Shown here one piece after another: positions 1 to 21,975 of a stretch of DNA of 59,660 nt. How positions within the stretch are numbered: the stretch's first letter is position 1; every line of letters starts with the position of its first letter. The notes beneath the pieces were generated by a model. The model had not been told where the DNA came from, searched no databases, and saw nothing but the letters and a program-made list of their open reading frames with translations. Origin of the DNA: Alloascoidea hylecoeti (taxonomy: Eukaryota); the NCBI GenBank assembly GCA_001600815.1, contig BCKZ01000017.1:287720-347379 (forward strand), read 5' to 3'. A program made the translations under genes and the position numbers.

Positions 1-18
1 CTTCTGACATAATATTAG

Positions 19-1565
<1,547 letters not shown>

Positions 1566-2161: not shown

Positions 2162-5059
2162 TTGAGTACCTCAAGAGCAAGCGCCAGCGCGAGATTGAAC
2201 AGGGGACTGGAGAAGAGGCATGTTCGAAACTACTCAGAATCAGACGCTAATTATGATATATCTCCTGAATATGAGCATCTAATAAATAATATATCAAGGC
2301 CTAATATTAGCGTGCCCTCTCCTGGAAGTTCGTCTACTGGCACACCACCTGGGATAAATTCTACAGCTTCTATATTTTTGTCCCCATCTGAAACTAAAGA
2401 TGTAGATTCCGATTGGAAGCAAAAGAGTGAGGGTTTAGATGATGTTCAAAGAGTACCAAGAAACGTACCAACTCGGGGAAGAACACATACTCGTTTTAAA
2501 TTTCCCAGTGCAAATTGGGCAGGGATAAGTTTAGCAGGAAGAGCTTCTTCACTATTGACGTCACAACGAAAAAGAAAACAAAGTCATGATTATACCACTT
2601 CATCTGGCAGAACACAAAATTTACTTGAAGCATTCGACATAGCTGAACTAGACAATAATCAATATGCTTCTAGAAGAAAGCCTTCATTGGTATCAGTAAT
2701 GATGAGGTTTGGTTTTATGTTTTTAGGAATTGTTTGGGGAATATGTTTCATTGCGTATATTTATGTAGCTTTGAAAAGTACCAACTATATTGTACCAACA
2801 CCAATTCATAGCTACAACAGAGGAACAGAGCATAATGAAAACCCTATTACTTTAGATGATGTGAGAGATGGAAAATTTTTCAGCTCCGTACAACCCATAA
2901 CATTCGTTGAAACGTTAGATGACAATACAGACGATAAGGGTTGGTACATCAAAGATAATTCACAACGGTTCATACTGAAAAGAATGACAGATAATGAAGA
3001 AAAGGTCATATATGAAAAGGATAATTTTGTATATAACGGAATGATTTATTATATTGATAGTATGATTCCGAACAGGGATCTTACAAAAGCCATAATTCGT
3101 ACTGATGTTCAAGAAGAATACAGATATTCATCTGTGGCGTTTTATTGGATATTAGATATTGATTCCAAATTAATCATTCCTTTATATCCGAACTCTCATG
3201 ATAAATTAATAAAACTAGCTATTTGGTCTCCACTTTCGGATGAGATTGCATTCGTGTTTGAGAATGACATTTACATTCGAAAGTTAAAGAAAGAAAATTC
3301 AGAAGAACTTATTAGAATTACAAATGATGGAAGCCCCGATATTATTTATGGAACGCCTGATTGGGTTTATGAAGAAGAAGTCTTTGGAACTAACATAGGC
3401 ATGTGGTGGTCTCCAAATGGAAAGTATTTAGCAGCCTTAAAAACAAATGATACATTAGTTCCAGAATATCCAATGCCATACTTTACCACTGAGAAAAATG
3501 CTTATCCACGGTTCTATAAATTAAAATATCCCAAACCAGGTTTTAACAATCCTACTGTTGAAGTTGGTATCGTTAATGTCAGAGACGGGTCCATTTTTTT
3601 CCTACCTGATGATGATCCAATTAGAGATGATATTGATAGTATAGTAACTGAAGTTATATGGGTAGGCGTGGAAAGACTATTACTACGAATATCAAACAGA
3701 GCTAGTGATATCATGAAAATTTGTCTTGTCGATGTGACTTCGCAATATGCAAATGGTCGTATTATGAGGACTTTGACCTCAAAAGATGGTGGTTGGTTTG
3801 AACCAACTCAAAGTACAGTTTATATTCAATCTGATTCATCTAATAATAGGCCACATGACGGTTATTTAGAAACTGTGGCTGTTCATGATTTTTATCATTT
3901 AGTCTATTTTAATTCCTCAGAAAGTTCTAGCGGAAAAGTTTTGACCAGTGGTGATTGGGAAGTTACATCACGACCGGTATTTAATGCGGTGGCTAATCGG
4001 ATATATTTTTTGGCTGCAAAGAAATCATCCATGGAACGGCATCTTTATTCCATCGGTTTAAATGGGGAAACCCTTTTAGAGATATCAAATACGTCTGAAG
4101 AAGCATGGTATAATGTATTATTCTCTTCTGGTGGTAGATTTGCGATACTGAATTATGAAGGACCAGGCATTCCAAATCAAAAAATACTTGATTTTCTTAC
4201 GGATGAACCGTATGAGAAAGCCAAGATCATTGAGAAAAATGAGGACCTTGAACAAGTTTTGGAAAGATTAAATGTTCCGACTACTGAATATGGACAAATC
4301 GAAGTATCTTCGGGCATATTTGCTAATTATAGGGAAATTAAACCTGATGGATTTAATTCATCTCAATTATACCCTGTTATATTTTATGTTTATGGTGGTC
4401 CAAATAGTCAATCTGTTTCAAAAACTCATTTAATCTCTTATTCCCACGCGCTTGCTTCCGCTTTAAACGTGATTATTATAACTGTTGATGGTCGTGGAAC
4501 TGGAAACAGAGGACTGGCATACAGATCCATTGTTCGTAAGAATCTTGGGTATTATGAATCTAGTGATCAAATTGCAGCAGCAAAAATCTGGGCCAAAAAA
4601 TCATATGTTGATGAAAATAATATTGCAATTTGGGGTTGGAGTTATGGTGGCTACTTAACTCTAAAGGCTCTGGAGGTGGATAAAGGCCAGACTTTTAAAT
4701 ATGGTATTGCTGTAGCGCCCGTTACAGATTGGAAGTTCTATGATTCCATATATACTGAAAGGTATATGCTCACCCCAGAAGATAATCCTGAAGGATATTC
4801 TAAGTCTTCTTTTGCAAATGTGGAGTCTTTTTCAAAGGTGAAAAGGTTTATGATTATGCATGGCACCGCTGATGATAATGTTCATTTTCAAAATACATTA
4901 ACACTGATAGACAAATTTAATGTTGCAGGAGTTAAGAATTTTGATCTTTTTATTTTCCCAGACTCTGACCACAATATCAATCATCACAACTCCAAAAAAA
5001 TTATTTACGAGAGGATTACTGACTGGCTCGGAAATGCTTTCCAGGGAGACTTTTTATGA
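2162..5059 (+). CDS. DAP2: Type II membrane dipeptidyl aminopeptidase (DPP IV / S9B family, Dap2/Ste13-like); start uncertain
   Basis: Single TM segment at about aa 183-203, PDWVYEEEV, GWSYGG nucleophile motif, HGTADDNVHFQN and FPDSDH. Lies next to SLT2 as DAP2 does in S. cerevisiae, but the long cytosolic tail is Ste13-like. ORF opens at TTG; first ATG is at 2699. Confidence 0.88.
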   Translation: MSTSRASASARLNRGLEKRHVRNYSESDANYDISPEYEHLINNISRPNISVPSPGSSSTGTPPGINSTASIFLSPSETKDVDSDWKQKSEGLDDVQRVPRNVPTRGRTHTRFKFPSANWAGISLAGRASSLLTSQRKRKQSHDYTTSSGRTQNLLEAFDIAELDNNQYASRRKPSLVSVMMRFGFMFLGIVWGICFIAYIYVALKSTNYIVPTPIHSYNRGTEHNENPITLDDVRDGKFFSSVQPITFVETLDDNTDDKGWYIKDNSQRFILKRMTDNEEKVIYEKDNFVYNGMIYYIDSMIPNRDLTKAIIRTDVQEEYRYSSVAFYWILDIDSKLIIPLYPNSHDKLIKLAIWSPLSDEIAFVFENDIYIRKLKKENSEELIRITNDGSPDIIYGTPDWVYEEEVFGTNIGMWWSPNGKYLAALKTNDTLVPEYPMPYFTTEKNAYPRFYKLKYPKPGFNNPTVEVGIVNVRDGSIFFLPDDDPIRDDIDSIVTEVIWVGVERLLLRISNRASDIMKICLVDVTSQYANGRIMRTLTSKDGGWFEPTQSTVYIQSDSSNNRPHDGYLETVAVHDFYHLVYFNSSESSSGKVLTSGDWEVTSRPVFNAVANRIYFLAAKKSSMERHLYSIGLNGETLLEISNTSEEAWYNVLFSSGGRFAILNYEGPGIPNQKILDFLTDEPYEKAKIIEKNEDLEQVLERLNVPTTEYGQIEVSSGIFANYREIKPDGFNSSQLYPVIFYVYGGPNSQSVSKTHLISYSHALASALNVIIITVDGRGTGNRGLAYRSIVRKNLGYYESSDQIAAAKIWAKKSYVDENNIAIWGWSYGGYLTLKALEVDKGQTFKYGIAVAPVTDWKFYDSIYTERYMLTPEDNPEGYSKSSFANVESFSKVKRFMIMHGTADDNVHFQNTLTLIDKFNVAGVKNFDLFIFPDSDHNINHHNSKKIIYERITDWLGNAFQGDFL

Positions 5060-5835
5060 TATAGTAGCTTTAAAGACACTTAAATTAAGCTTATAACTAT
5101 TATATAATATCACTGTTATTTATATTTTTTTATTCGGCTTTTTACCAAACATTCCATAGCATATATTGCCATATAACCAATATTATATAATTAATGACAT
5201 TCAGATCTTAAATTGTTAAATTGATGCACCTAATTTTTAAAAACTTAAATTCTACTGATACCCACATGCACGTTTAATCGATAACTGAAATATTTCAAAA
5301 GTATAGTCTACGATTTAAAATTACAGAAAAGATGTTTCATGTTTCAATCTTTTCTTTTGAAATATATATTTTATCCAAAGTCAAGGAAAAGTTGATACTT
5401 AGTTAATCCGTTTGCTAAGTACAAACATTGAATCTTATTGCTTAAATTTGCTAACAATGGGAGGTATTTACATGTAGATAATGAATTCAGTTAATTATAA
5501 TACATACTGTGGGCCTGTGATCAATATATGCCTTGAATCTTAAGCTTCAGCCATAGTTTACCTTAAGATTTGCTTCTTTTGAAAATGCATCATTCAAAAC
5601 ATAGACCCCAGTTGTATATTGCTAGGTTATAAATGGTTCCAATTGCAGTTGAATTGATGTTAATATATTGTCTATATGCATTGTATATTCTGATTCCAGT
5701 TCTCTCTTTCTCCTGTTTATTGTTCTTTAATACTTTGAGCGAGCTTTATGGCACCATTCAAAAAGTATTTCTTCTTTCTATGATTAATAATAATATTACC
5801 ATTAATTTATATACATCACTTAATACATTCTCAAC

Positions 5836-7001
5836 ATGACTAATTTTAAAGATCAAATTGCGCAAGAATCGTCAAGCTCCTCAGGTAATACCGACTCTGA
5901 GTGGGATCAAAATGCTTCCCAAAGCCCGGAATCATCCCTTCATAAATTAGACCTCAAAATAGAATCATTAAGGACCGAATTTCAAGAATGTAACAACCAA
6001 ATACTACGCAGATTAGCTCAACTAGAAAAGTCGGCCTTGGAAAAGGATAATAGTGAAATACAGTAAGTCCCTTTTCATTCATTTTCCATGATCGGAAAGA
6101 TGTAAGCTCTTTCCGTTCACTTTACAGTATACGGATAGCTAACATAAAGCTAACAAATTATTGTTATAGCTATATGCATGACAAACACCGTTTAGATATC
6201 GATGAGCTAAATATTATAGCTGATACAAAAGTCACTGTTATAAAAGAAGCTCCTGAGAAGGAAAAGTTGTACCTTCGTGGTGAATTTAATATTCCCCCTA
6301 ATCTTAAGATAATCAACCTTAAAAATGATAATTATCATCTATGGAAGATTGGAGTGAAACTAGTGCAAGACTTTCTAGGGTTATCCCATGAAACTATCGA
6401 CCTTCATTCTAAAGATATTAAAGATCCTATCGTGAAAAGGAACTATAGTATCTTCAGATATTTAATCTTGAAGTCATTGCCAGGTGTTCAAGGTGAGATG
6501 TACGCCTCATATGATCAGACAATTGGAAAGCTTCTTGATGAAATTAAAGATTCAATTATTTGCGAGAGCTCCAAGGTTATTGTACATCAGCTAGTAACTG
6601 CTCGACTTAGGATGAACATGGATAGAGAAGATATTTTTCAATTTTCGAATCAGTGTAAGGCCACAATAAAAAAGTTGGAGAGTATCAAGAAAACACAGTG
6701 TTCCAAACAGGAACTACTATTCTATCTCTACGGGTGGGTCAGTGATGAAGCTAAACTTGTGAAAATATATACAAATTATACAATTTCTAAAGAGTATGAG
6801 GATTGGAATTTCGAGGAGTTATGTGATGAAATCTCTGAGCAGATCTTGCTTTCATCGACAACTACTACACCTACGAAGTCTAATCATAATAATTTAGAAG
6901 TGAAGAAGGGTCGCCATACAAATTCCAAAAAATTCCAAACTAATAGAAAAAAACACAGAAAGAAATTTAAAACAAGTCGAAAGACCCATAAAAGAAACTA
7001 A
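5836..7001 (+). CDS. Spliced Ty1/copia Gag-like protein, about 352 aa; exons 5836-6062 and 6170-7001; no pol
   Basis: Donor GTAAGT 6063, branch GCTAAC at 6138 and 6149, acceptor TAG 6167-6169; splicing fuses the two ORFs in frame (CA|C TAT ATG). LKNDNYHLWKIGVKLV..FLGL resembles the copia Gag N-terminal L-x2-NY-x2-W motif. Strongly basic C-terminus. Confidence 0.65.
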
Positions 7002-9229
7002 AAGGATATCGATGTATCCGGATAAGAGTAATGGTGAAATGACACCACATAATATTAATTCAAAATAGAAATGAATCGACGATCATGTGTTTATTGGATC
7101 CAGCTTGGCCTTCTAGATAACTTTTAGGTACTTTATTCAAATTCATACATAAAAATCATAACCAGAGTACCTAAATATATATATATAGTTTCTATGTTTT
7201 TTTTTTCTAATTAGTCTGTTTCAGTTTATATGTGATATTTGCAGGAAAGCATTGCTCTTCATAAATATAAATAATAGTAAATTTTATTTTATTGATATCG
7301 TTGCTGATCGTGGTGTTATTATTCTTTAATTCGAATGTCTAATAAAAAATAGCTTCTATTATAGTTAGAGATTATAAATTTTTTAATTATACTTCTGATT
7401 AAGAACATAATAAATATCTAGAAACGAAATGAATTGAATAAAAAAATAAACAGATGCACTCAACAACGAATTTTATAAAATTAGTAATTATAAGGATAAA
7501 AGAGTTAATCATGAGAAACATTTGTATTTGTATAACTTTACCATAAAAGTATACCGTTTATGCCTCGTAACTTTAAATTGGTCTCAAACGTATGCATAAT
7601 ATAAGCACAGGTGAATTCTATTAATATTCTAATTGGCCTATTATATTGCGATTGAACGCTTAATTATAGTCATAGTATATTATAATATTATCTACTGGTA
7701 TAACCTTATCAACGGAAATCAACTATAAATAGATGAACATTTCTATATATAGTTTATGGTATTAGTTTAGTGGCAGTATTCATTAATTCTTTATATAATT
7801 ACAATTGCAAGAATTAATCATCATATCGCAATAACTACAAATCTATAGTTGAATCATATGAGTTTATATTATAGGCCTAGTTATATGCTGATTCAGTGCT
7901 GGATACCAATGCCTAGATAATAGATATTATAGTGACGTATAAACTGCCATGATGATTCAGTTTTCTAGCTTTAATTTCTTCCGTTCCAATGTAGAAGGAG
8001 CGCTGAAGTCGAAACCCCTAAAAATATTCGATCGGGCTTTCCAACAATTGGAATTCAACCTTTTAGTCGCGCGCAAGAAAATGTAATCAAAGTTCGGAGA
8101 TAAATAATTGATTATAAAAATTATAAATTACTTTTATTATCTTTGGTTAAAAAGCTAAGTAAGTAAACAAAGAATTGAGGAAAGATAATATTATATGAGG
8201 ATTTACCTGAACAAAGTAGATCTACCGAGTTTATAAAGAAGTTTACGAGGTGTGGTTGGAAAATTCGAAAACATATATGAGATATCTGATGATTTCCACC
8301 ACAGTGAATCAATGATCGAAGATTCTCTAAAAACTATTGGACGTAGAATTCAGACTTATAAAAGTGGAAAGGTAAGAACTACACAAAATTAGCTGGAGAT
8401 AATGAAGACGGAAAATCGTAGAAGAAGGTTCACACCACAAAAGGATTTACAAAAAATATGTTATCGGAACTATGAAAGTAAGTGGAATTGAGTAATACCA
8501 TTTTTAATGATTAATATTTGCTGTTGGTTTTGCAATTCGTAGTTGAATTTTTGGGTGGTCCCGTATCTGTTGAGAGCGTTGAGTCACTGTTGAGTCAGGG
8601 TTGTTCCTAACTGTATTATCATTTGCATTTATATAGTTAACTTTCTTATCATCGGTAGTGTACTGCTTAGCACTTCATACTTAACTTTACTTTGGTTATG
8701 GCTATCTCATGATCAAATACTATGTATATTACGGATTAAATCTCACAATTGGTTGTATATTATATTACCGTTAAGTTAATATTACTGATTTCACATTTGG
8801 TATGTATCTAGCAAAGTTTTGTAATTTCTCATACCATTTGAAGCAAGCCAATATTGGTGAATTCGAATTACCATCATTTCAGAAGGACGAAGAAGTAGAA
8901 TCTTCTTCTAACATCAGATTTAGTAAAGGGCGACTCTGAAGAGGAGGAATGGAATTTAAGGATGTTAAGGATTTTTCCAAAACATCATGCCAATAGCATG
9001 TTAACATTAGATCAAAAACCTGCGCCGGTACCAGCACATTCGGTCAGATTATCTTAAAGGAATAACTTGAATCTAGACGAGGGACTGCCTTATCATGATG
9101 CCAACAGACTATAACTTATAGCTATTGGAAAAACTCCTCGCACGTGCACGTTTCGCAAATTTATAAATCCCAGCAAACTTAGACATCCAATTTCATCTTT
9201 CCATAATCAAATACACATCTACATCAAAT

Positions 9230-9684
9230 ATGTCATTTTTAGGCGGCGGTAGCTCATCTGGGTCTGTAAATCAGGCAAAAATTGCAAATGCTGAGGCAGA
9301 ATTGGATATGGTTACCGATATGTTCAATAGGTAAGTGGTCATATATTGAATGATCAAAAGCTTTAAGTCGGTAGTTATAATAATGAACCCCATCTAATGC
9401 TATTCAATTATAGGTTAACCGAAGTTTGCCACAAGAAGTGCATTATGGCAAATTACTCCAGCGCTGATTTGAGTTGGAAAGATGGTAGTTGCATTGACAA
9501 CTGCGTTGGAAAATATTTTGATGTTAACGTAAAGGTCGGAGAGGTAAGTTTTGTTTTGTTATTTGCTCAATGATTGGTTATCATTATTAATATATAAAAT
9601 CTAACGTTTCTTTACGTTTTAATCTTGGAATAGCACATGCAACAGCTTGGAAAAAGCGGTGTTTTCAATAACAATTCGTTTTGA
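9230..9684 (+). CDS. TIM10: Mitochondrial small Tim chaperone Tim10; exons 9230-9330, 9414-9543, 9634-9684
   Basis: Not in the ORF track. Spliced product [56 protein letters not shown] has the twin CX3C motif. Both introns are GTAAGT..CTAAY..TAG. Confidence 0.93.
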
Positions 9685-9862
9685 AAATTGTAAAAATGTT
9701 TTAGGAACATTGGACGTCATTATAAATAAAATTAAAACCAAGAAATTATCATTAAACAACATCATTTCAATGGACAGATTTCTATACTACACGCATATAT
9801 AACACTATAGCTAAACTACCTACTATATACAAAAACCAATATTAATGACAATGGCATTTATA

Positions 9863-11770
9863 CTATATTGCATTGCTGTATTTAATCTTAAGATCTTCTA
9901 TTTTAAATTTATTTTCATTCGATAATGAAATAACATTAATTTTCCTTTTCTTTGAATAATCATTGTGAGAATGAAGAATTAATTGTTCAACTTTTTTATC
10001 AATATTTTTCCCATCAAAATGTTTTGAAACACCAATTATAGAGTAAAGTTGTGACATCCTAAACTCTCTTTTCAAAAATTTATAACGAATTGATGTCGTG
10101 GGTTCAATATGAACAGTCATTACAAGAACTTCAGGATCCCATATTAACTCTTTTGGGATAATTGTAAAACTTAAATCTGATAATTTTGTACCATATGAAA
10201 TTTCCTTATCAATATTTAAAATTTCCGTTTGTTGCCAAATTTTCATTTGTTTCCACATCTCCATACCCAAGGGCAATTCTTTGAAGTTTCGAATAACTAC
10301 TGATATCATTGTATCTGGTGAAAATGTTGGGTCAAATCTAGATCGTAGATGTTTTATTTTTTCTTTATCATTGAAATGATGAATGGTATTTCTTAAATTC
10401 TTCCACAATTCTTCTAACTTTAACGGAACAGCAAGGTAGAAATGTTCATTTCCTATTAGATATTTCCGTGATTGAACATATTTCCTTATTCTTTCCGGAG
10501 CTAGAGTTCCATCTTTCTTAGAGGTGTCTATATGTTTTACAAGTTCTGCGGATGCTTTTCGTGTTTTATCATCTATCGATTCGATAGCTTTTATGGGGTT
10601 TGCTGGCCCAAATGATTTTATTGGTTCCATCGAGTCTATAATTTCTGAATGGTTCGAAGGTTCTTTAACAGTCTCTATAGGTTTTGGCCTTGCAAATATA
10701 GAGAGTTTCACAATGTGTTGCTTATCCGTATTTCTCATGAATTCTTCTTTCGTAGAATTAAGTGCCATACGATATGCATTTTCAACTTTATCATCAGTAA
10801 GATACGCATTCCGTGGCGCTATACCTTTTAATTCTTTTAGAATGGTCTGTAAATTATCTCTAGTTGCATCCTTATTCAGTACAGAAAGGACAACAACCTG
10901 ATGAAATGCCTGATCAGGTCCATATTCATTATATTGTGATAAATTTAGAGGTTGAAATCGCATCAAGCTTCTATCTATAATTGTATCAAGCTCTTTTAAT
11001 CCTGTATCATTTTTAGTATTTGAGTTTAAATGTTTTTCAGCCAATCGACTTTTAATTACATCCCGTACGATGTGGTCTTGAGTATGATCGAAATGTAATC
11101 CAATAAATCTGATATTAGTCAATTGACGTGGATCAACCATATTCAGGATATATTCCATTAATATTTTTCTATCCCGGACCATATAATTGTTTCTATCAGC
11201 AAAAACAACATGGTTTGTTTTTAACTTTGTCATTATTTCTTTGGCAAATTTATAAGTTTTGTAAGGACCAGAAGGGATTCCATCATTTGAGATTAATGGC
11301 CAGCCATATAAAGTTTCTAATGCCTTTGCCAAAGTTGTTTTACCACAGCCACTAGTAGAGATCGGAATAATCACGAATCTATATTGATTATCCTCGAAGT
11401 ATACATCCTTTAAAATTTCCAATTTGCTCTCTTCTAATGATTCGTTAGGATTATCTTTATCTGATTTTGGATTCAAGAAATCAAACAATCCCGGATCTAT
11501 TTCTGGTTGAATTTCAGGTATAATTTTTTTACTTTTATGAACACTTTGGACGACACCCTGGAAAAAATTGATTGAATTTTTATATTCTATTAGTTTGTTA
11601 CTGATGTTGTAATTCTTGTGTATTTGTCTTATTTGAGTAGAGGAAAAATCTCTGCCTAGCCATTGGCCAGATGAGAACAAAAGAGGACAAACCACTTTTG
11701 ATTTCACAATCAATATATCCGAGGCTTCATATACCGGTTTTGCTAAGACTTGGAGGGGGACTAATTTCAT
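9863..11770 (-). CDS. tRNA ligase Trl1-like polynucleotide kinase plus degenerate CPD-like region, lacking the N-terminal ligase domain
   Basis: IIPISTSGCGKTTLAKAL..LYGW..ISND and VVFADRNN match the Trl1 kinase module. Only about 130 aa precede the P-loop. First ATG is at 11770. Confidence 0.72.
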   Translation of the reverse strand: MKLVPLQVLAKPVYEASDILIVKSKVVCPLLFSSGQWLGRDFSSTQIRQIHKNYNISNKLIEYKNSINFFQGVVQSVHKSKKIIPEIQPEIDPGLFDFLNPKSDKDNPNESLEESKLEILKDVYFEDNQYRFVIIPISTSGCGKTTLAKALETLYGWPLISNDGIPSGPYKTYKFAKEIMTKLKTNHVVFADRNNYMVRDRKILMEYILNMVDPRQLTNIRFIGLHFDHTQDHIVRDVIKSRLAEKHLNSNTKNDTGLKELDTIIDRSLMRFQPLNLSQYNEYGPDQAFHQVVVLSVLNKDATRDNLQTILKELKGIAPRNAYLTDDKVENAYRMALNSTKEEFMRNTDKQHIVKLSIFARPKPIETVKEPSNHSEIIDSMEPIKSFGPANPIKAIESIDDKTRKASAELVKHIDTSKKDGTLAPERIRKYVQSRKYLIGNEHFYLAVPLKLEELWKNLRNTIHHFNDKEKIKHLRSRFDPTFSPDTMISVVIRNFKELPLGMEMWKQMKIWQQTEILNIDKEISYGTKLSDLSFTIIPKELIWDPEVLVMTVHIEPTTSIRYKFLKREFRMSQLYSIIGVSKHFDGKNIDKKVEQLILHSHNDYSKKRKINVISLSNENKFKIEDLKIKYSNAI

Positions 11771-13300: not shown

Positions 13301-16300
13301 ATGTTCCATCGAAAAGGTTCAACTTCCAACTCTTCTAGTCATATTCATCTGCCTCACTCGCCGTCCTCTTCGTCTCGTCGAGGGAGTCGTGGCAGCAAAC
13401 CGGCTTCAACTCCAATTTCAGTAACTAATTCCCCTATACCCTCTTCTCCTAATCGGCAAGCAGCCCAACATAAGCACACTAATTCAGCTACATTGGCAAT
13501 ACAATATGAAGATGATAAAAGGAGACTTAATAGATATTGTTTCTCGAAAACAGATGAAGACAACTTCTTGTTGGAGAGCTACATTACACATGTTAGAATC
13601 ATTGAAGATTCCCACCATCCTAATGAAAGACCTCCAGCATCCTCCGGAAAAAACCATAAAAAAGCACGTGTTTTGGCACTGGCTGTTCGAAAAAATGGTA
13701 GGGTTCTAGTTCATAAAGCTCGAGAGAATGCTAATGGAACCTTTCAAATTGGTCGTACTTGGTATCTAGATGAGTTAACAAGAGTCGAGAATGATCCAGC
13801 AAGTTTAACTGGATTTATAATGTATTTTGGTAAACCATATTATTGGGAGACAAATTCTCCAAAGGAGAAAAACGTTTTTATTTCCAGTGTTAACCGAATT
13901 TATAAAAAATATACTGGCGGGAAAAGTCCTGAAATGGTTGGATGGGAGAATGACATGTTCCAACAAGTTGGGCATTCACCTTCAAGTTCAGTCACATCCC
14001 CTATTATAGTTCATCAAGCAGCAAGTCCTGGTAGTGAAGTTAACTCGTTGGCGAGAGTTGATAGCAATCGATCTTTTCAATCTACTAACTCTCATGAATC
14101 ATCTTCGAAACTTCAAGGATTAGTAAACCCTTCTCTTCCTAGTTTCTCTTCGGTTCACAGATCTCCAAATCCCACAGAACCCTTACATCTTAAAAATAAT
14201 AAAAGTTCTGGTTCATTGAGACCAAATTCTGGCAATCAACCACAGATTCAGCAATCGCCTTTACCTCGAGTGCGTCCGGGCCAAGGACCAAACCAACAGC
14301 AATTTAGAACTATGCTAAATACTGATGAATATCCTTCAAATATGAGCGGATTAAGGAAGAACAGCTTTTCGGCAAATAGACCACAAGACTCTCAATTACC
14401 TAATAAATTGAAATCTGGAGTAAATGATAGTGCTGCTAGAAGCTCACCAACATTGCCTTTAATGAATCCTAAATTAAGGGGTGATCAACCATCAAATGAA
14501 ACTGAACCCTTACGAAAAGTTGCAACTCATAATTCTGTTAATAGTTTTGCGGCACAGATTCCTGGTCAGAAGCCTGGTAATCAAGTTAATCGGTCTTCTC
14601 CTGATCTTCTTCATCAACAACGTCCTTCGTTTGATCAGAAATCACCCCAGCAAAGATACGTACATCAACAACCAGTTGCTAGAAACGGGGGACCAATGGG
14701 AATGATGGGTCCAAGTGCAATGGGTCCTAATGGTCCTAATGGCCCTAATGGTCCTAATGGTCCTAATGGTCCTAATGGTCCTAATGGTCCTAATGGTCCT
14801 AATGGTCCTAATGGTCCTAATGGTCCTAATGGTCCTAANNNNNNNNNNNNNNNNNNNNNNNNNNNNNNNNNNNNNNNNNNNNNNNNNNNNNNNNNNNNNN
14901 NNNNNNNNNNNNNNNNNNNNNNNNNNNNNNNNNNNNNNCCTAATGGTCCTAATGGTCCTAATATTCGTAAGGGTCCTAATATTCGTAAGGGTCCTAATGG
15001 TCCTAATGGTCCTAATGGTCCTAATGGTCCTAAAGGCCCTAACGCTCCTAACGCTCCAAATATTCGTAACGGTCTTAACGGTCCTAATGGTCCTAATGGC
15101 GCTCCAAATATTCGTAACGGTCCTAATGGTCCTAATGGCGCTCCAAATATTCGTAACGGTCCTAATGGTCCTAATGGTCCTAATGGTCATAACGGTCCTA
15201 ATGGTCTTAGTAGTCGTAACGTATCTAACGGTTCTAACAGTTCTACCGGTCCCAATGGTCCAAGGGTGCAAAACCCACCATTTAATCAAGAAAAACAGTT
15301 CCAACCTTCAGGACCACCTATTCAACCTCTACAATCACAAAAGCAACCTCCTCCCCCAGTACCTATTCCAACTCAACAGCAACCTTCATTCCTACATAAA
15401 TCCAATCAGCCTTCAAGTGATAAATTACCAGTTCTTAGTATAGAAGTACCGAATACGCCATCTCAAATAGATTCACAGAGTAAAACCATTAGAGATTCTT
15501 CTACTGGCTCTACCATCACTGGTGATAGTGACTCCTCTTCATCCACACCACGTTTTTCATCTGATGATAAACCCTCGTTTGAGCAAATACAAATATCGGT
15601 ACCACCTGTACAACAGGTACAACAACAAAAGCAGGCACAACAACAACAGCCACAGCGTTCTACGGCTCCTAAAGGGCATAAGAAGAATGTATCGATTACA
15701 GATATTCAATTTGTAAAACGTGAAAGAGCTACGCGATCGCAACCCGAAAATGATCTCCCCGACTTAACTACCAATTCCAGTGGATCGAGCGGGACAGATA
15801 GGAGTAATGTAGAAATATCAAGAGAAGAAAAGGCTGCTCGAAGAGCCTCCAATGTTCCCGCATTTAAGGTCATTGAAATGGAAAATGGAAAATTTACTCC
15901 ATCTGAAGTTGGAATTAATGATACTGATAAACATCTCTCTATGAAAACAATTGCTAATATTGCTGTATTTGAGGATGTTTTGGATGAAGTGAACTGGTCC
16001 GGTTTAGATGATGCTAATAGTTTAGAACAAAGATTGGCAGCTGAATTGAATAAAGTTGAATATAACAATATTAATAATATACTTGGAATGGCAAATAATC
16101 TTGACGAAATTGATTCGGCTATTGATAAAGCAATTGATGAATGTGATAGACTGGATCCATTACTTACTTACTTTTCTGTCGAATTGGCCAGTTTCAGATC
16201 AGATATTGCGTATGTTGAAGATCAAGGTGAAGGTCTTCAAGTTCAGACTACAAATAAGAAGTTACTATGGAATGAGTTGAGGAATTTATTAAAGACTGTT

Positions 16301-18283
16301 TCTATCCCTAATGATGAATTGATTTCTTTGAGATCTACCGATTTTAACAATTTGGATCAAGTTTCTAAACTTGAATCATCTTTAGTTGAGCTTTACAATG
16401 CGTTGTCATTATCTAGAGGAACCAATTCACATGCCACTACTGGGTTACGTTCTATGCGTGTTTTGCAACAAAAAAGTGAAGATTATGAACGATCTTCCAA
16501 AGAGTTTTTGGGCTTGATGATAAGAGAATTAGTAAACAGGTTTAATTTTGTAGTCTCAAAGACGAGGGTTGACGCTTCTTCATTACCTTCTTTGGACTTA
16601 TTTTACGATGTTTTGCTACCAATGGCAGGTCTCATCTTATACGCTCGGGAAGCCGACAAACGAGTTTATGACGAGATTTTGAAAAGCTATGAAGGAGCAG
16701 TTAGACCCTTCTATGAAAAAGCCTTTGGGGGACATATTGAAAAGTGGAAACCATCAGTGTTGCCAACGGTTTCCAGTAGCAATTTTTTCGAAATTACTGA
16801 TAGAGAATCATCATCATCACAGCAAAAATTTACCCATGCTCCTCTTTCTAGATTAAAGACACTGTCGAGCAGTCAAAGAAAGACTAGTCTTAAGAAAGCT
16901 CACAGCAATGCATCCCTTAATTCACTTTCATCTAATAGTCCACTGACATCAAAATCAAAACATTCAACAGTTATACATTTAGTTTCACTTGTCGAGTCTA
17001 TTAGTTCCGAAGTATTAGCCCAACAAAATTTAATAGTAGAGCTTTTTCATCTAAGGGAAGATGCTACCTCGTTTGCTGAATATATTCAAAAAGTTCCCCC
17101 AAAAGAACGTCGTTCATTAATTGGTAGAAAGGAAAGATTTCAACTTGTGAAATTAGATAGATACGGAGCACAAACTTGTCTTAAGATTATGACTGATATA
17201 TTCGGCCGTTCTATGTCATCGTTCACAGATGCAGTGGACCAGGTTATTAATAATGTACCCATTGAATCACCCAGTGTTTTATTATTGCTTGAGTATAGTA
17301 TGAAGAACATTGATGCTACTAGCCAGGAATACCTTCTTAGGTGTTTTCAAAAGATGCATGATAAAGTATTTAATATTTGGAAAAAATATGTTGTCGAGCA
17401 AGTTCGAGCAATCGAAACTGAAATTTTCTCAACCAAGAAAAGAAACAATATCATCTTAACCGGTATAAAGAAACTACCAGAATTTATTCAATATGTAGAA
17501 GAGTCATTAGAGTCAGCTAATATTGAAGATTCCAATGAATTTAAAGTCCGTAAGTATGTCCAAGAGGCCTATGATGCACTAGGAAGTGCTGCTTTTAAGA
17601 CACTTAAGAAGGCCGAAAAAGAAAGAGATGATAATACTCCTATTCAAAGTCCTGTTGGGTTTGTTAGTAGTATGAATCCATTGCATTCACAGGTCGGAGA
17701 AACTGAGGATAAAGAACTACTTAATTTTCATATTTTTATGATTGAAAACACAGATTGTTTGGTGGAAGAGCTTCAGAGCATTCGAAATTCAGAAAGTCTG
17801 GAGATCCGTACTAAGGCTCAGAAACTATATCGAGATGAACTACAACTTTATATCCAAACAATTATTAGACGACCCCTTGGAAAACTGCTTGAATTTGTTG
17901 AAGGTGTTGAAACCTTTATGAATACAGAAGTTAAAGGTTCAAAACTCGTTGACCCCTCCAAGCGTCATGCTTACAGTCGTGGTACCATGAAACGAACATT
18001 GGCATCATATGAAAGTAAAGATATCAAATCTGGAATCGAAAAACTTAGACAGAGGGTAGAAAAGCATTTCACTCATATAGAATCGAATGCCAGCAGTGGA
18101 AATGGTGCTGCTTACGGTAAATCTAATGATAGATTAATTTCCAAAATTTGGTTATCTACACAATCTGAGTACTTAGCCATTTATTCACGTTTGATGAAGC
18201 TGGTGGAGGGATATTATCGTGATATTCAACCCGATTTCAGCAAAAATGATATTACCTCTGCATTCGGTTCATATATGAATTGA
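13301..18283 (+). CDS. SEC3: Exocyst subunit Sec3
   Basis: N-terminal PH-like domain (YITHVRIIEDS, HKARENANGTFQIGRTWYLDEL), coiled region (GLQVQTTNKKLLWNEL) and C-terminal RRPLGKLLEFVEG..LRQRVEKHF. First ATG at 13301. Contains an assembly gap. Confidence 0.92.
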   Translation: MFHRKGSTSNSSSHIHLPHSPSSSSRRGSRGSKPASTPISVTNSPIPSSPNRQAAQHKHTNSATLAIQYEDDKRRLNRYCFSKTDEDNFLLESYITHVRIIEDSHHPNERPPASSGKNHKKARVLALAVRKNGRVLVHKARENANGTFQIGRTWYLDELTRVENDPASLTGFIMYFGKPYYWETNSPKEKNVFISSVNRIYKKYTGGKSPEMVGWENDMFQQVGHSPSSSVTSPIIVHQAASPGSEVNSLARVDSNRSFQSTNSHESSSKLQGLVNPSLPSFSSVHRSPNPTEPLHLKNNKSSGSLRPNSGNQPQIQQSPLPRVRPGQGPNQQQFRTMLNTDEYPSNMSGLRKNSFSANRPQDSQLPNKLKSGVNDSAARSSPTLPLMNPKLRGDQPSNETEPLRKVATHNSVNSFAAQIPGQKPGNQVNRSSPDLLHQQRPSFDQKSPQQRYVHQQPVARNGGPMGMMGPSAMGPNGPNGPNGPNGPNGPNGPNGPNGPNGPNGPNGPNGPXXXXXXXXXXXXXXXXXXXXXXXXXXXXXXXXXXPNGPNGPNIRKGPNIRKGPNGPNGPNGPNGPKGPNAPNAPNIRNGLNGPNGPNGAPNIRNGPNGPNGAPNIRNGPNGPNGPNGHNGPNGLSSRNVSNGSNSSTGPNGPRVQNPPFNQEKQFQPSGPPIQPLQSQKQPPPPVPIPTQQQPSFLHKSNQPSSDKLPVLSIEVPNTPSQIDSQSKTIRDSSTGSTITGDSDSSSSTPRFSSDDKPSFEQIQISVPPVQQVQQQKQAQQQQPQRSTAPKGHKKNVSITDIQFVKRERATRSQPENDLPDLTTNSSGSSGTDRSNVEISREEKAARRASNVPAFKVIEMENGKFTPSEVGINDTDKHLSMKTIANIAVFEDVLDEVNWSGLDDANSLEQRLAAELNKVEYNNINNILGMANNLDEIDSAIDKAIDECDRLDPLLTYFSVELASFRSDIAYVEDQGEGLQVQTTNKKLLWNELRNLLKTVSIPNDELISLRSTDFNNLDQVSKLESSLVELYNALSLSRGTNSHATTGLRSMRVLQQKSEDYERSSKEFLGLMIRELVNRFNFVVSKTRVDASSLPSLDLFYDVLLPMAGLILYAREADKRVYDEILKSYEGAVRPFYEKAFGGHIEKWKPSVLPTVSSSNFFEITDRESSSSQQKFTHAPLSRLKTLSSSQRKTSLKKAHSNASLNSLSSNSPLTSKSKHSTVIHLVSLVESISSEVLAQQNLIVELFHLREDATSFAEYIQKVPPKERRSLIGRKERFQLVKLDRYGAQTCLKIMTDIFGRSMSSFTDAVDQVINNVPIESPSVLLLLEYSMKNIDATSQEYLLRCFQKMHDKVFNIWKKYVVEQVRAIETEIFSTKKRNNIILTGIKKLPEFIQYVEESLESANIEDSNEFKVRKYVQEAYDALGSAAFKTLKKAEKERDDNTPIQSPVGFVSSMNPLHSQVGETEDKELLNFHIFMIENTDCLVEELQSIRNSESLEIRTKAQKLYRDELQLYIQTIIRRPLGKLLEFVEGVETFMNTEVKGSKLVDPSKRHAYSRGTMKRTLASYESKDIKSGIEKLRQRVEKHFTHIESNASSGNGAAYGKSNDRLISKIWLSTQSEYLAIYSRLMKLVEGYYRDIQPDFSKNDITSAFGSYMN
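14723..15205 (+). repeat. Coding 9-bp minisatellite (GGTCCTAAT)n encoding (Gly-Pro-Asn)n, with NIR/GAP variant units
   Basis: Directly visible tandem array inside SEC3, interrupted by Ns. Confidence 0.97.
14839..14938. other. Assembly gap (100 N placeholder)
   Basis: Run of 100 n. The 9-bp repeat phase is not preserved across it, so the true length probably differs. Confidence 0.99.
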
Positions 18284-18522: not shown

Positions 18523-21500
18523 ATGTCCAGTGACTTCGATGATTTCATTGATGGCTTTGAAGAGGATGAACTAGACATCATTAGCATCACTCGTGGATCA
18601 AGCTTGAATGAGTCTAATGTTGCAAAACAACCTTCAAATATCGATAACCCGATACCACAACAAATTCAGTTAGAGTCAATAGAGGAGGAAATCGATTCTA
18701 TTACTGATTCCCAGATATTTGGTATTATAGATCATGACAACCAGACACATAAATTAAACGAAGATGCTCTAACGACTTATGTTTATCCTGTTAACTATGA
18801 ACTACGTGATTATCAATTTAATATCGTTAAGAAATCTTTATTTTCCAATGTATTATGTGCTCTCCCAACAGGCTTGGGAAAGACCTTTATTGCAAGCACT
18901 GTTATGCTTAACTGGTATCGCTGGACTGAGTCTGCAAAAATCATATTTATGGCACCAACGAGACCCCTTGTTTCTCAACAAATAAAGGCATGTTTAGGTA
19001 TAACAGGGATACCAAATCGTGACACAGCTGTTTTAATGGGGTCGAGGTCCGTTTCCATTAGAGAAGAAGCTTGGACTACAAAGAGAGTATTTTTTGCAAC
19101 TCCACAAACTGTGCAAAATGATCTATCTCGTGGGATTTTAGATCCAAAATCAATTGTATGTCTAGTTGTCGATGAAGCTCATCGTGCCACTGGTAACTAC
19201 GCTTACACCAAGGTAATTCAGTTGATCAGCAAAGTCAATAAATCATTTAGAGTGCTAGCATTGACTGCAACCCCAGCATCAACGGTTGAAGGAGTTCAAG
19301 AGGTAATTGATAATCTTATGATCTCGACTGTGGAGATTCGTACAGAGGAAAGTATGGATTTACAAAAATATATGCATCTCAAAATTCAGGACATGATCGA
19401 AGTTCCTTTAAATGGTGAAGTTGAGGAAATTATCGATTATCTTGCCATTGCAATTAAACCATTACTAACAGTTGTTAATAAAAGTGGTGTTTATCATGTT
19501 CGAGATCCTAAAAAGATCAATAGTTTTACCGCACGCCAATCATTACAAATATATGCAAGAAGATCGGGAGGAAATTCAGGTGCTTTCTTTAAAGCAAGGG
19601 CAATAATGCAAATAATCGGAGTTGCTGCTTATGCAATATCATTATTAACATTTCATAGTATTCGTTCATTTTATAATTATTTTGCTCCTGAGTATTTCAA
19701 TTTTAAGAACTCAAAGTCAAAAGGGAAGTTTACAGGTCAATTTTATGATGATAAAAATGTTAGTAAAGCTATTGAACTTGCCCAGGAAGTTTTGGGGAGA
19801 GATGACTATGTAGGTCATCCCAAACAAGAGAAATTAACTGAAGTCATGCTTGATTTTTTCAAAAATTCTAAAAATAAAGACTCTAAAGCAATCGTGTTTT
19901 CAAGCTTTAGGGAATCAGCTAATGATATCGTTAGAGTGTTAGATCGACATGGACCATTACTAAGACCTCATATTTTTCTAGGGCAAGCTGTTAAACAGAA
20001 GAAGAAGATTAAGCCCAAGAAACCCACAAAGACGAAAAGGAAAGGTAAAGATAAAAGGAAACCAAAAAAGAAAAGAAGAAAATCGGGGGCAAAAAAGTTT
20101 ATTTTGGATGAAGTTGATGATGACGATGATGATGGTGATGAAGACAACCACGAAGAAGAAGATGAAGAAGATGATGATGAAGAAAATGAAGAAGGCAGTG
20201 AACATGAACATAATGATAATAATAATAATGAAATAGAGGAAGAAGAAAGACCAAATGTTACTAATCGTAATGATAATGATAAATACATAAAGCGGTTTGC
20301 TGTAAATAACCGAAGCTCAGAACGGACAGCAAGTTCCGACTTTGCAACTGAGAACGGTATGAACCAGAAACTACAACACGAGGTAATTCATCGGTTTCTA
20401 GAGGGTAATTATAATATTTTAGTTGCTACATCAGTTGGGGAAGAAGGTCTTGATATTGGTGAGGTAGATTTAATTGTTAATTATGACTCTAATGCCAGCG
20501 CAATCCGTGGACTTCAAAGAATGGGACGAACAGGCAGAAAAAGAGATGGACATGTTGCGTTTTTATTTTCGGGAAATGAAAATGAGAAACACAAAAAGGC
20601 AATTGATAATCATCAATTTATCCAAAAGAAAATTACAAGCAGTAACAGCTTCAAGTATGTGAAGTCGGAAAGAATAATTCCCAATACGATAGCACCAACT
20701 TGTGAAAAAAAATGCATTATAATTCCAAGGGAAAATGAGGAAATTATACAAGCTGAAGATGATGAAGTCATTGAAATTGCAGTCAATAAATTAAAAACAC
20801 CAAGAGGGAAGCGTAAAAAAGCCGAAAAGAAATTTTATATGCCAGATAATGCCCTAACCAAGTTTATAAAGGCATCAAAGTTAGTACAAGCTCAATCCTT
20901 GGAATCCTCATCTTCGTCTAAAAGCTATCATAAGAGTTCTCCCCAACGAAATCTCTCATCGGATATTGATATTGATATGGGTGTTGAAATAAATGAATCA
21001 TTTAACCACTCTAAAAATAAAAAGGTTGTACTTAAAGAAAAGGCTGGTTCAGATCAATTTAATTGGGATGATAATGATAATGATTTCGATTGCGATCTTG
21101 ATATATCAGTATTATTGAAAACCCCCGGAAGTAGTACGAATAAAGTTAGTAGGAATGACGACGAAATGGTACATCCGAGTTCTAATGAATCTGAAAAGAA
21201 AACTGATTTTCCAAGCTCACCTTTACTTGATGTGCAAAGTTTGAGTCAAGAGAAAGGAACAGGAAATAATCTTATTGAAGTCCTCGATGACGATGAAGGT
21301 AATAATAAAATACTTATTGATGAAAATGAATTAATCGAATTACCTGATAGTCAACTCTTTGACACTACTGATATTAATAATGATAACCTGCCAATAACTT
21401 TAAGTTCTACATTTACTCCGCTACCACACCAAGAACTACAGCCAAAACAAAAACGTAAAAAATTTGTATCCGAGGTTTATGGTAAAAATTACGGATGCCT

Positions 21501-21975
21501 CCTTCCTAAAAAAGAAGACGAGTTACTAGATATGATAAGTAATTCTCCCGATTTATATCAGTCAATTAAAGAGTATGATCCCTTATTAGGAGCCCAAAAA
21601 GGCGTTGACGCAAAGTTCATATCACATGGAAGAACCACATCCCGGTTTATGAATGCTGTCAAGATGATGGGTGATAAGATTGATAAGTCAATTGAATATG
21701 AGAGTTATTTAGATCCAGAAAAAGTAATAGAGTTGGAGACTCTGAAAGAGCGAGCGGAAAAGTTCAAGCTATTACCACAAGGGCATGAATCGAACTCCAA
21801 TAAGTTTGTATTTATCGTTAAGAAGGAATCTGAGGAGGAAGATATTGAGATCATAGAAGAAGGTAAAGACAATAGTCCTAGATGCCCTGTTTCTGGGTTT
21901 GGAGAGCTTGATGACGAAGCATTGAGAAATGAGGATTTCAGCAATTTGAATTGGGATATAAGTGAAGATTTTTAG
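18523..21975 (+). CDS. MPH1: FANCM-family DEAH helicase Mph1
   Basis: LRDYQFNIV, LPTGLGKT, VVDEAHRATGNYAY, LALTATP, ATSVGEEGLDIGEVD and QRMGRTGRKRDG. Confidence 0.95.
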   Translation: MSSDFDDFIDGFEEDELDIISITRGSSLNESNVAKQPSNIDNPIPQQIQLESIEEEIDSITDSQIFGIIDHDNQTHKLNEDALTTYVYPVNYELRDYQFNIVKKSLFSNVLCALPTGLGKTFIASTVMLNWYRWTESAKIIFMAPTRPLVSQQIKACLGITGIPNRDTAVLMGSRSVSIREEAWTTKRVFFATPQTVQNDLSRGILDPKSIVCLVVDEAHRATGNYAYTKVIQLISKVNKSFRVLALTATPASTVEGVQEVIDNLMISTVEIRTEESMDLQKYMHLKIQDMIEVPLNGEVEEIIDYLAIAIKPLLTVVNKSGVYHVRDPKKINSFTARQSLQIYARRSGGNSGAFFKARAIMQIIGVAAYAISLLTFHSIRSFYNYFAPEYFNFKNSKSKGKFTGQFYDDKNVSKAIELAQEVLGRDDYVGHPKQEKLTEVMLDFFKNSKNKDSKAIVFSSFRESANDIVRVLDRHGPLLRPHIFLGQAVKQKKKIKPKKPTKTKRKGKDKRKPKKKRRKSGAKKFILDEVDDDDDDGDEDNHEEEDEEDDDEENEEGSEHEHNDNNNNEIEEEERPNVTNRNDNDKYIKRFAVNNRSSERTASSDFATENGMNQKLQHEVIHRFLEGNYNILVATSVGEEGLDIGEVDLIVNYDSNASAIRGLQRMGRTGRKRDGHVAFLFSGNENEKHKKAIDNHQFIQKKITSSNSFKYVKSERIIPNTIAPTCEKKCIIIPRENEEIIQAEDDEVIEIAVNKLKTPRGKRKKAEKKFYMPDNALTKFIKASKLVQAQSLESSSSSKSYHKSSPQRNLSSDIDIDMGVEINESFNHSKNKKVVLKEKAGSDQFNWDDNDNDFDCDLDISVLLKTPGSSTNKVSRNDDEMVHPSSNESEKKTDFPSSPLLDVQSLSQEKGTGNNLIEVLDDDEGNNKILIDENELIELPDSQLFDTTDINNDNLPITLSSTFTPLPHQELQPKQKRKKFVSEVYGKNYGCLLPKKEDELLDMISNSPDLYQSIKEYDPLLGAQKGVDAKFISHGRTTSRFMNAVKMMGDKIDKSIEYESYLDPEKVIELETLKERAEKFKLLPQGHESNSNKFVFIVKKESEEEDIEIIEEGKDNSPRCPVSGFGELDDEALRNEDFSNLNWDISEDF

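Follow-up and report, generated by a model that had tools for sequence, protein, structure and literature searches.

A two-exon gene within the window, i.e. the whole stretch of 59.7 kb of DNA analysed here, is on balance best explained as descending from the capsid gene, gag, of a Ty1/copia-type LTR retrotransposon and now standing alone as a gene of the host. Since the middle part of its product shows a weak but specific resemblance to Ty1/copia Gag and other transposon parts are missing nearby, the locus probably represents a transposon capsid gene retained by the fungus. Animals offer well-known examples of co-opted Gag genes, fungi only few. If this reading is correct, the gene would be a domesticated case featuring a whole capsid domain, a gained intron and a coiled-coil head, and too far drifted for standard domain models to recognise. 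Surveys based on homology would then seem to under-count such genes, and the gene would offer a tractable yeast-type system for the role of a full-length domesticated capsid.

Gene structure and predicted intron

Scripted joining of the two coding segments by coordinates yields a CDS of 1059 nt, which encodes 352 aa and contains a single, terminal stop. All the coordinates of the original prediction, in which two ORFs are joined in frame by a canonical intron, were reproduced, and the features of the gene and of its product are collected in Table 1. The two-exon gene is intact and, judging from the sequence signals, the predicted intron is probably real. Comparable introns are found in the window within the Tim10-like gene (9331-9413 and 9544-9633), with signals of a similar style and lengths in the same range. 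The composite of splice signals (GTAAGT..CTAAY..YAG spanning at most 150 nt) is by itself not very rare in the window, where it occurs 8 times vs 3.2 +/- 1.6 expected from 100 dinucleotide shuffles, both strands included. It is unlikely, on the other hand, that by chance such signals should fall exactly at the end of a 75-codon frame started by an ATG and join it in frame to a frame of 276 codons. The codon score of exon 1 is gene-like (0.196 per codon) and is matched by 6 of 100 non-coding frames of at least 50 codons.

The exon-2 frame is already open from 6057 and remains so through the intron. A frameshift in place of splicing was also considered as a way of connecting the two frames, which overlap by 10 nt; this was judged less likely than splicing because the overlap contains no slippery site and the intron scores -0.119 in the exon-2 frame. 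The in-frame TAA of the donor had been proposed to act as a splicing switch, an idea that is not supported: a TAA is automatic in any phase-2 GTAAGT intron, hence generic, and is also present in intron 1 of the Tim10-like gene.

Table 1. Positions of the gag-like gene, its predicted intron and the parts of its protein (positions refer to the window)
Feature	Position	Residues	Strand	Description and basis
Exon 1	5836..6062		+	227 nt: 75 codons from ATG 5836 plus 2 bases; codon score
Intron, predicted spliceosomal, phase 2	6063..6169		+	107 nt; signals match the window's other short introns
Donor GTAAGT	6063-6068		+	Sequence
Branch-like GCTAAC (two)	6138-6143, 6149-6154		+	Sequence
Acceptor TAG	6167-6169		+	First AG past the second branch site
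Exon 2	6170..7001		+	Last base of codon 76, 276 codons and TAA 6999-7001
N-terminal start, acidic, Ser/Gln/Asn-rich		1-34	+	Exon 1 translation
Putative coiled coil or heptad-patterned helix	5938..6039	35-68	+	Suggested by heptads
Gag/capsid-like core	6306..6833	122-297	+	Colinear with the PF14223-type copia Gag domain (hhalign); ESM Atlas; structure model
NYHLW motif	6330..6344	130-134	+	In register with copia Gag N-Y/F-x-x-W
Thr/Ser-rich linker and Lys/Arg-rich tail	6843..6998	301-352	+	Composition; no zinc knuckle

Organisation of the predicted protein

In the N-terminal part of the protein, residues 35-63 have a hydrophobic residue at the 'a' position in all five heptads (L35, I42, F49, I56 and L63), with L38, L45 and C52 at position 'd'. 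This pattern would fit the putative coiled-coil N-terminus of the original prediction; the Pfam matches of coiled-coil type are all sub-threshold, the best being the CLZ leucine-zipper with E 0.0061 and 17.4 bits vs a cut-off of 26.7.

The NYxxW motif of the original prediction is confirmed as NYHLW, near the start of the core. With respect to the Gag signature G-x-N-Y/F-x-x-W, the protein has the N, the Y and the W, while the Gly is replaced by Asn; in the Gag alignment A3, the corresponding G15, N17 and W21 are nearly invariant. Alignment with MAFFT places the motif in register with the Gags, and the protein also conserves the only column that does not vary across the Gag set. At the C-terminus, the last 52 residues count 17 K+R and a single D+E, and no CCHC zinc knuckle is present in the 352-aa protein according to the patterns C-x2-C-x4-H-x4-C and C-x2-C-x3-5-H-x3-5-C, in keeping with the knuckle-free basic tail described initially. 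The tail is placed where copia Gags have their basic linker and CCHC. Most copia Gags have a CCHC knuckle after CA, which Ty1 lacks.

Relatives and similarity to copia Gag

Searches based on sequence, with phmmer and by word matching among them, did not recover relatives of the protein. Pfam assigned no family to the exon-2 protein even at E <= 10, and the curated Gag HMMs PF14223 and PF01021 (TYA) were unmatched; all 15 comparison Gags match PF14223. Among PDB sequences no relative was found, the search of 1.84 billion protein representatives returned only the protein itself, and among 5.8 billion proteins it was again alone, forming a cluster of its own (1 member, 1 contig). The sole library match, P0003, is a 275-aa version starting from ATG 6174, which derives from an automatic gene call in another assembly. 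With hmmsearch --max and a profile of 15 copia Gags there was no signal, the protein ranking 36th in a set of 1,002 made up of itself, its reversed form and 1,000 shuffles, of which 980 were reported, and phmmer --max against the fetched Gags likewise gave none. A pattern search of metagenome contigs for related loci matched 246 stretches, none of which was confirmed, and a copia RT pattern matched no stretch in viral contigs.

The language model and profile comparisons point to Gag. In the ESM Atlas, the whole exon-2 protein is matched by TYA, Retrotran_gag_2 and zf-CCHC clusters at 0.86-0.91. When the core is taken without the basic tail, 17 of 30 named matches form one PF14223 set, and the ten best named matches all belong to one family or clan. 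With hhalign, the profile of 15 copia Gags aligns to the protein with a score of 29.7, E 8.4e-4 and a probability of 24% over 165 colinear columns. This score was reached by none of 246 whole shuffles (max 22.6), none of 222 sequences shuffled only in the core, the flanks being left native (max 25.2), and none of 36 unrelated protein pieces from the window (max 19.9), and the reversed profile scores 11.8. Against the core alone the same small profile scores only 19.7, a value reached by 8 of 241 shuffles. A profile of 134 sequences gives 34.0 for the core alone (P 1.3e-4, probability 54%), a score which none of 297 shuffles reaches (max 23.7), and the comparison with the Gag alignment A3 gives E 3.3e-4 over 174 columns. 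Overall, the hhalign alignments are colinear over 164-174 columns with P ranging from 1.3e-4 to 8.4e-4, and their probabilities of 17-54% are below the range usually taken as proof. Of everything tested, it is Ty1/copia Gag that residues 122-297 resemble most, the likeness being remote and weak, and their assignment to a very diverged two-lobed copia-type capsid (CA) domain is supported but not proven.

Predicted structure of the core

AlphaFold2 run on the single sequence gave a model with a pLDDT of 38.5, which is unusable, and with an alignment of copia Gags the pLDDT was 75.3. Of 48,161 chains, the Gag-alignment model matches the Drosophila Copia capsid best, with 179 of 184 residues aligned at Z 11.3 and rmsd 8.6, and retroelement capsid proteins occupy 11 of the 12 best rows of this structure search, in which a Z below ~13 may reflect an arrangement common among helical proteins. 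The model also matches the CTD of PEG10 (Z 8.1, rmsd 2.8, 84/85) and, with its CTD-like half, Drt2 (PDB 9rxy; Z 8.1, rmsd 3.5, 87/90). Having been folded with a copia Gag alignment, the model has a capsid likeness that is partly built in. Foldseek against the PDB returned nothing at E <= 0.001 for the model (PNMA2 capsid E 0.68, copia capsid E 2.2), and nor did the BFVD search at the same threshold. A two-lobed, all-helical capsid fold (CA-NTD plus CA-CTD) of the core would agree with the model's match to the Copia capsid, in a comparison that is partly circular and to which Foldseek adds no significant hit. A two-copy complex prediction of the core, for which the alignment was not used, scored 0.00 and gives no verdict either way.

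Genomic context

The neighbours of the gene are ordinary housekeeping genes, with a DPP-IV-type peptidase upstream and Tim10-like and tRNA-ligase genes downstream, and its G+C content is equal to that of the surroundings. Compared with all the 16 other long frames in the window, the gene has the lowest codon score (0.114 vs 0.131-0.373) and the highest GC3 (0.34 vs 0.17-0.28), which gives it a foreign flavour.

The two absences on which the initial description insisted, those of pol and of an LTR pair, were borne out. No LTRs were found, the longest flanking direct repeat being 28 nt at 71% identity, and around the gene there are no terminal repeats, no target-site duplication and no primer-binding context. 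Over 7002-9201, translated in six frames with X in place of stops, Pfam recognised no family, and when 23 copia polyprotein frames were compared with the whole window by tblastn the best E was 0.15, revealing no protease, integrase or RT. The three downstream frames, compared by hhalign with 11 copia knuckle-protease regions, scored 10.1-14.6 vs 7.7-21.5 for 12 intergenic control frames. A possible remnant of a protease had also been suggested downstream; the letters CLLDPA do exist at 7088-7105, and no protease signal accompanies them, either in Pfam or in hhalign, where scores stay within the control range. In the whole window, Rfam detected only a tRNA-Asp gene. A second copy is absent from the 59.7-kb window, where tblastn of the protein retrieves only the gene itself, and the gene is single copy as far as seen in the window and in the called proteins of the libraries.

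Origin of the gene

The original prediction of a domesticated copia gag stands as regards the intact frame, the missing pol, LTRs and knuckle, and the Gag-like core. The likeness of that core is remote, and host adoption is what we infer from the intact frame, the intron, the complete disappearance of all other element parts and the fact that only one copy was seen. Several other explanations have to be weighed against it. It is rather unlikely that the gene is an orphan specific to its lineage and without ancestors among retrotransposons, coding for a helical protein with a coiled-coil head and a basic tail resembling a nuclear localisation signal, in which the Gag likeness would be convergent or due to chance. 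Such an origin agrees with the lack of relatives in Pfam, the PDB and the protein libraries, with the negative hmmsearch with the Gag profile, with hhalign probabilities that do not exceed 54%, with the 8 of 241 shuffles that equal the core alone under the small profile, with the lack of significance in Foldseek and with the bias that the Gag alignment introduces in the structure model. What makes it doubtful is that two methods sharing no data, ESM Atlas and hhalign, choose the same family among all. Moreover, the alignment is colinear across the entire domain of 165-174 columns with the hallmark NYxxW in register, the real scores are reached by 0 of 297, 0 of 246 and 0 of 222 shuffles and by 0 of 36 unrelated proteins, and the basic tail lies exactly at the position of the Gag tail.

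The locus could also be a dying relic, i.e. all that is still open of an old copia insertion, unexpressed or unused and open by luck or youth, in which exon 1 and the intron would be coincidental and ATG 6174 the true start. The automatic gene call in the other assembly, which begins at this ATG (P0003, 275 aa), is in line with it, as are the codon usage and GC3, the most atypical among 17 frames, and an intron which is open in the exon-2 frame. We regard it as distinctly unlikely. LTRs, knuckle, PR, IN and RT would all have decayed past detection, yet 276-352 codons are open where stop triplets, as estimated from base composition, amount to ~7.5%; the gene is not young either, since its Gag part has diverged past the reach of Pfam, and if splicing did not occur, an upstream frame of 76 codons, gene-like in its codon usage, would be left in the leader. 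It is very improbable, finally, that the gene belongs to a non-autonomous element consisting only of gag and present in several copies, or to a gag-like gene family, with the other copies outside the window. The copy count covers only 59.7 kb and the called proteins, which leaves room for them, while the libraries give one cluster with one member despite including another assembly with the same protein, no terminal repeats or target-site duplication occur at the gene, and elements that multiply via RNA already freed of introns would not be expected to contain one.

Possible function

If the gene is indeed a host gene of gag origin, its history would begin with an old copia insertion, of which the gag frame was retained while the rest of the element decayed. 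The gag gene would then have acquired a 5' exon or intron together with the N-terminal coiled-coil-like segment, and a basic tail comparable to the nucleic-acid-binding one of Ty1 Gag would have been retained. By analogy with Drt2, p22/p18 of Saccharomyces and mouse Fv1, its most likely mode of action would be that of a Gag-derived restriction factor: through its CA lobes the protein would attach to capsids that related elements are assembling, perhaps with greater avidity thanks to the coiled coil, and this binding would poison the assembly of particles. Fv1 itself joins a coiled coil to a capsid-binding part. An alternative use of the same parts could be a host RNA-binding or packaging role, similar to that of Arc.

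A bolder and rather unlikely proposal is that a complete copia capsid gene was turned into one for a new kind of capsid-sensing protein, in which a host-acquired coiled-coil first exon would provide multimerisation, the two CA lobes would detect the lattice that copia particles, incoming or resident, present to them, and RNA would be held by the basic tail without a knuckle. This would be an avidity design similar to that of Fv1 and TRIM5, or else a self-assembling RNA carrier similar to Arc, which would have arisen independently in fungi and diverged beyond the reach of sequence searches.

Comparison with known systems

Proteins such as mouse Fv1, Arc/dArc1, PNMA2 and PEG10 are, like the one described here, stand-alone proteins of CA type, and several of them are among the best rows of the structure search; they are animal genes, however, and derive from ERV-L or Ty3/gypsy-type elements rather than from copia. 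With copia Gag itself (PF14223; Drosophila Copia capsid, PDB 8vvw and 8s41) the protein shares the NYxxW near the start of the domain, the order of the predicted helices and the position of the basic region, whereas it differs in that the family HMM fails to match, the CCHC is missing, no protease-integrase-RT follows the gene and no LTRs flank it. A basic, knuckle-free tail acting as a nucleic-acid chaperone is described for Ty1 Gag in PMC4551931.

For fungi, two reports give as examples DRT2 of Saccharomyces cerevisiae (PMC10951436) and, among filamentous and basidiomycete fungi, Crtg12-14 (PMC8321522). A limited literature search found no such gene described in yeast besides DRT2, which is not proof of absence. 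Drt2 is an endogenised Ty1' Gag restriction factor, with restriction demonstrated according to PMC10951436, and p22/p18 is self-encoded by Ty1, as stated in PMC13709905. As in DRT2, the host is of budding-yeast type and a putative gag piece of the Ty1/copia superfamily is still open, with the remaining insertion presumably decayed and no pol. Drt2 and p22, however, correspond to the CA C-terminal domain only and are clearly Ty1-like in sequence, whereas this protein appears to retain both CA lobes; unlike Drt2, it has a basic tail and an additional N-terminal exon that is coiled-coil-like, its gene contains a predicted intron, and it is too diverged for Pfam TYA or PF14223. The DRT2 locus, moreover, is a Ty/tRNA hotspot, while here the nearest tRNA gene lies 33 kb from the gag-like gene.

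According to Wang and Han 2021 (PMC8321522), Crtg12 and Crtg13 are co-opted Ty1/copia gag genes of Dothideomycetes, and Crtg14, another fungal co-opted gag, has an intron. The likeness to Crtg12/13, which is by description only, consists in a fungal, stand-alone gene probably derived from a copia gag and single copy as far as seen. Those genes feature clear sequence homology and syntenic orthologues across families, whereas here no orthologue and no homology at Pfam level were found, and their hosts are Dothideomycetes, while the present one appears, from genes similar to those of Saccharomycotina such as the Tim10-like one, to be a yeast-like fungus. With these differences, the gene is probably one more fungal case of an exapted gag, of the kind known from DRT2 and Crtg12/13.

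Gene model and genomic context

The window has a G+C content of about 33% and looks like a yeast-type fungal chromosome. Two plus-strand frames (5836-6066 and 6057-7001) follow the DPP-IV/S9 peptidase gene and precede the Tim10-like gene, and the signals on which an intact, intron-containing gag-like gene had been predicted (ATG, donor, branch sites and acceptor) were all found in place. Joined by coordinates, exons 5836-6062 and 6170-7001 amount to 1059 nt, with 352 codons and one stop.

Features of the window, in window coordinates
Feature	Position	Strand	Remarks
DPP-IV/S9 peptidase	2699-5059	+	
gag-like gene, ATG start	5836	+	
gag-like gene, donor GTAAGT	6063-6068	+	
gag-like gene, branch-like GCTAAC	6138-6143, 6149-6154	+	
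gag-like gene, acceptor TAG	6167-6169	+	first AG past second branch site
Tim10-like gene	9230-9690	+	small mitochondrial import protein; two short introns
Tim10-like intron 1	9331-9413	+	GTAAGT..CTAAT..TAG; phase 2, TAA directly after exon
Tim10-like intron 2	9544-9633	+	GTAAGT..CTAAC..TAG
tRNA-ligase kinase-domain gene	9863-11770	-	
Sec3	13301-18283	+	
DEAD/DEAH helicase	18523-21975	+	
tRNA-Asp (GTC)	39755-39826	-	sole tRNA gene in window

The other short candidate introns of the window (51-118 nt) follow the grammar of the gag-like intron, with GTAAGT, CTAAC or CTAAT, and YAG, and they include both introns of the conserved Tim10-like gene, a handy internal standard for the splice signals of Alloascoidea hylecoeti. 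The composite signal occurs eight times, against 3.2 ± 1.6 expected from 100 dinucleotide shuffles, and by itself is not very rare; the weight for the intron therefore rests on where exactly it sits, closing an ATG-started frame of 75 codons and joining it in frame to one of 276 codons. The proposal that a TAA in the donor could make a splicing switch is unsupported, since this TAA is a feature of any phase-2 GTAAGT intron and is present in the first Tim10-like intron, and it is no evidence of regulation.

The 2.2 kb between the gag-like and Tim10-like genes (7002-9229) are without a recognisable gene or any Rfam family, with a G+C content of 24-28% from 7002 to about 8000, short open frames on both strands beyond, and two further intron-like signals (8478-8636 and 8800-8917). 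At 1660 aa the Sec3 homologue is unusually long; its residues 464-511 are a collagen-like run of Gly-X-Y repeats (Pfam Collagen), a region overlapped by long open frames on the opposite strand (14642-15190, minus) and in another reading frame (14730-15443, plus).

Similarity to copia Gag proteins

In feature searches of the ESM Atlas, whose scores are leads only, the gag-like protein adjoined the clusters TYA, Retrotran_gag_2 and zf-CCHC (0.86-0.91). With exon-2 residues 40-240, which exclude the start and the basic tail, one set of PF14223, the Ty1/copia Gag domain, provided 17 of the 30 named hits, and the best ten, headed by a score of 0.90, were all of the same family or clan. Copia elements were then collected from metagenome contigs by a degenerate pattern for a conserved RT motif (105 stretches), and 15 Gag parts from these, each matching PF14223, made up alignment A1. 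A profile-to-sequence search gave no signal: set against 1,000 shuffles and its own reverse, the gag-like protein came 36th (1,002 sequences searched, 980 reported).

Profile-profile comparison against the 15 Gags scored 29.3-29.7 (P 0.0008-0.0015, probability 17-24%), with 164-167 colinear columns setting residues 122-297, the core, on profile columns 11-190 and the NYHLW motif on the NY/F-x-x-W of the Gag family. As high a score was reached by none of 246 full shuffles (mean 13.8, maximum 22.6), 222 shuffles of the core between its native flanks (maximum 25.2) or 36 unrelated protein pieces of the window (maximum 19.9), and the reversed profile scored 11.8. One weak point was the core alone, at just 18.4-19.7, which 8 of 241 shuffles matched. 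Enlargement of the profile with 119 library Gag proteins, to 134 sequences (99 after filtering), removed this dependence on the flanks: the whole protein scored 34.7, exon 2 34.8 and the core alone 34.0 (P 1.3e-4, probability 54%; 0/297 core shuffles as high, maximum 23.7). In addition, hhalign against the copia Gag alignment A3 gave an E of 3.3e-4 over 174 columns, and MAFFT aligned the protein with the Gags end to end, the sole invariant column being kept.

Outside the core, residues 1-34 are acidic and rich in Ser, Thr, Gln and Asn, residues 35-63 form five heptads with hydrophobic "a" positions, and the tail (301-352; K+R 17/52) lies where copia Gags carry their basic linker and knuckle. 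PMC4551931 describes Ty1 Gag as likewise without a knuckle, its basic clusters serving nucleic-acid chaperoning. Among the 17 long frames, the gene has the lowest codon score (0.114; 0.131-0.373 in the 16 others) and the highest GC3 (0.34; 0.17-0.28), values which fit foreign ancestry or low expression.

Predicted structure

A single-sequence model of the protein carried no confidence (pLDDT 38.5), while exon-2 residues 31-240, modelled with the 15 Gags (alignment A2), were predicted to be all helical (pLDDT 75.3, pTM 0.54); helix positions are mostly the same in both, which is of mild comfort. Foldseek with the guided model returned nothing at E <= 0.001, with the PNMA2 capsid first (E 0.68) and a copia capsid ninth (E 2.2). 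Among 48,161 chains, VIA-align placed the Drosophila Copia capsid 8vvw_A at the top (Z 11.3, 179/184 aligned, rmsd 8.6), and 11 of the top 12 rows were retroelement capsid proteins, including the PEG10 CTD (Z 8.1, rmsd 2.8), Drt2 (Z 8.1, rmsd 3.5), the copia T=9 capsid, Arc, MOAP1, dArc1, PNMA2 and dArc2. The guided model is consistent with a Gag, yet not independent of that reading, because the alignment giving it confidence consists of copia Gags.

Absence of element remnants

The prediction of a gene without pol, LTR pair or CCHC was borne out. Direct repeats in 5000-9900 reached at most 28 nt, at 71% identity; the protein lacks a zinc knuckle; six frames of 7002-9201 (X at stops) matched no Pfam family at E <= 1; and 23 copia polyprotein frames found nothing better than E 0.15 in the whole window, and by tblastn no copia-like remnant near the tRNA-Asp gene. 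A knuckle-protease profile built from 11 copia elements scored 10.1-14.6 in three downstream frames, within the 7.7-21.5 of 12 intergenic control frames. With no element parts around the gene, the protease ghost proposed at CLLDPA (7088-7105) is unsupported.

Discussion

A gag-derived stand-alone host gene is the best-supported reading and, taken as a whole, narrowly probable; Gag ancestry alone is somewhat likelier. Of the original prediction, the Gag likeness finds support as a remote, profile-profile likeness, and host use is as yet argued indirectly. The other parts of the element have left no trace, and the Gag part has itself diverged past recognition by Pfam; even so, a frame of 352 codons remains uninterrupted in AT-rich DNA, with a predicted intron and a single copy seen.

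An orphan gene with no relation to Gag is unlikely. Searched with the exon-2 protein, Pfam gave no family up to E 10 and the PDB no matching sequence, and only the self-match was returned by a 5.8-billion protein library (among 442 and 664 scored candidates) and by a full phmmer pass over 1.84 billion representatives; the shuffle controls of the profile-profile comparison speak for Gag. A functionless relic with its start at ATG 6174 is rather improbable. In another assembly, automatic annotation starts the protein there (P0003, 275 aa), so that a one-exon model is a live alternative. The codon usage of exon 1 is gene-like: its 0.196 per codon stands at the 30th percentile for real-gene pieces of 75 codons and was reached by 6 of 100 non-coding frames, and no frame of the intron scores above -0.119. 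Membership of a multicopy family whose other copies went unseen is very improbable. The window contains no second copy, and the metagenome contigs yielded no relative.

For a gag-derived host gene, the most likely mechanism would be interference with the capsid lattice of related elements, for which Fv1 offers a further analogy; Arc-like RNA carrying may be an alternative role. The former is suggested by analogy with Drt2 and p22/p18, as described in PMC10951436 and PMC13709905.

Fungi are already known to carry stand-alone copia-gag genes, and the kind itself is not new: PMC8321522 describes Crtg12/13 of Dothideomycetes and reports an intron in Crtg14, and PMC10951436 describes DRT2 in S. cerevisiae. 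In comparison with Crtg12/13 and DRT2, the gag-like gene is set apart by a CA domain that appears complete, by an added coiled-coil-like exon and a predicted intron, and by its knuckle-free basic tail and extreme divergence.
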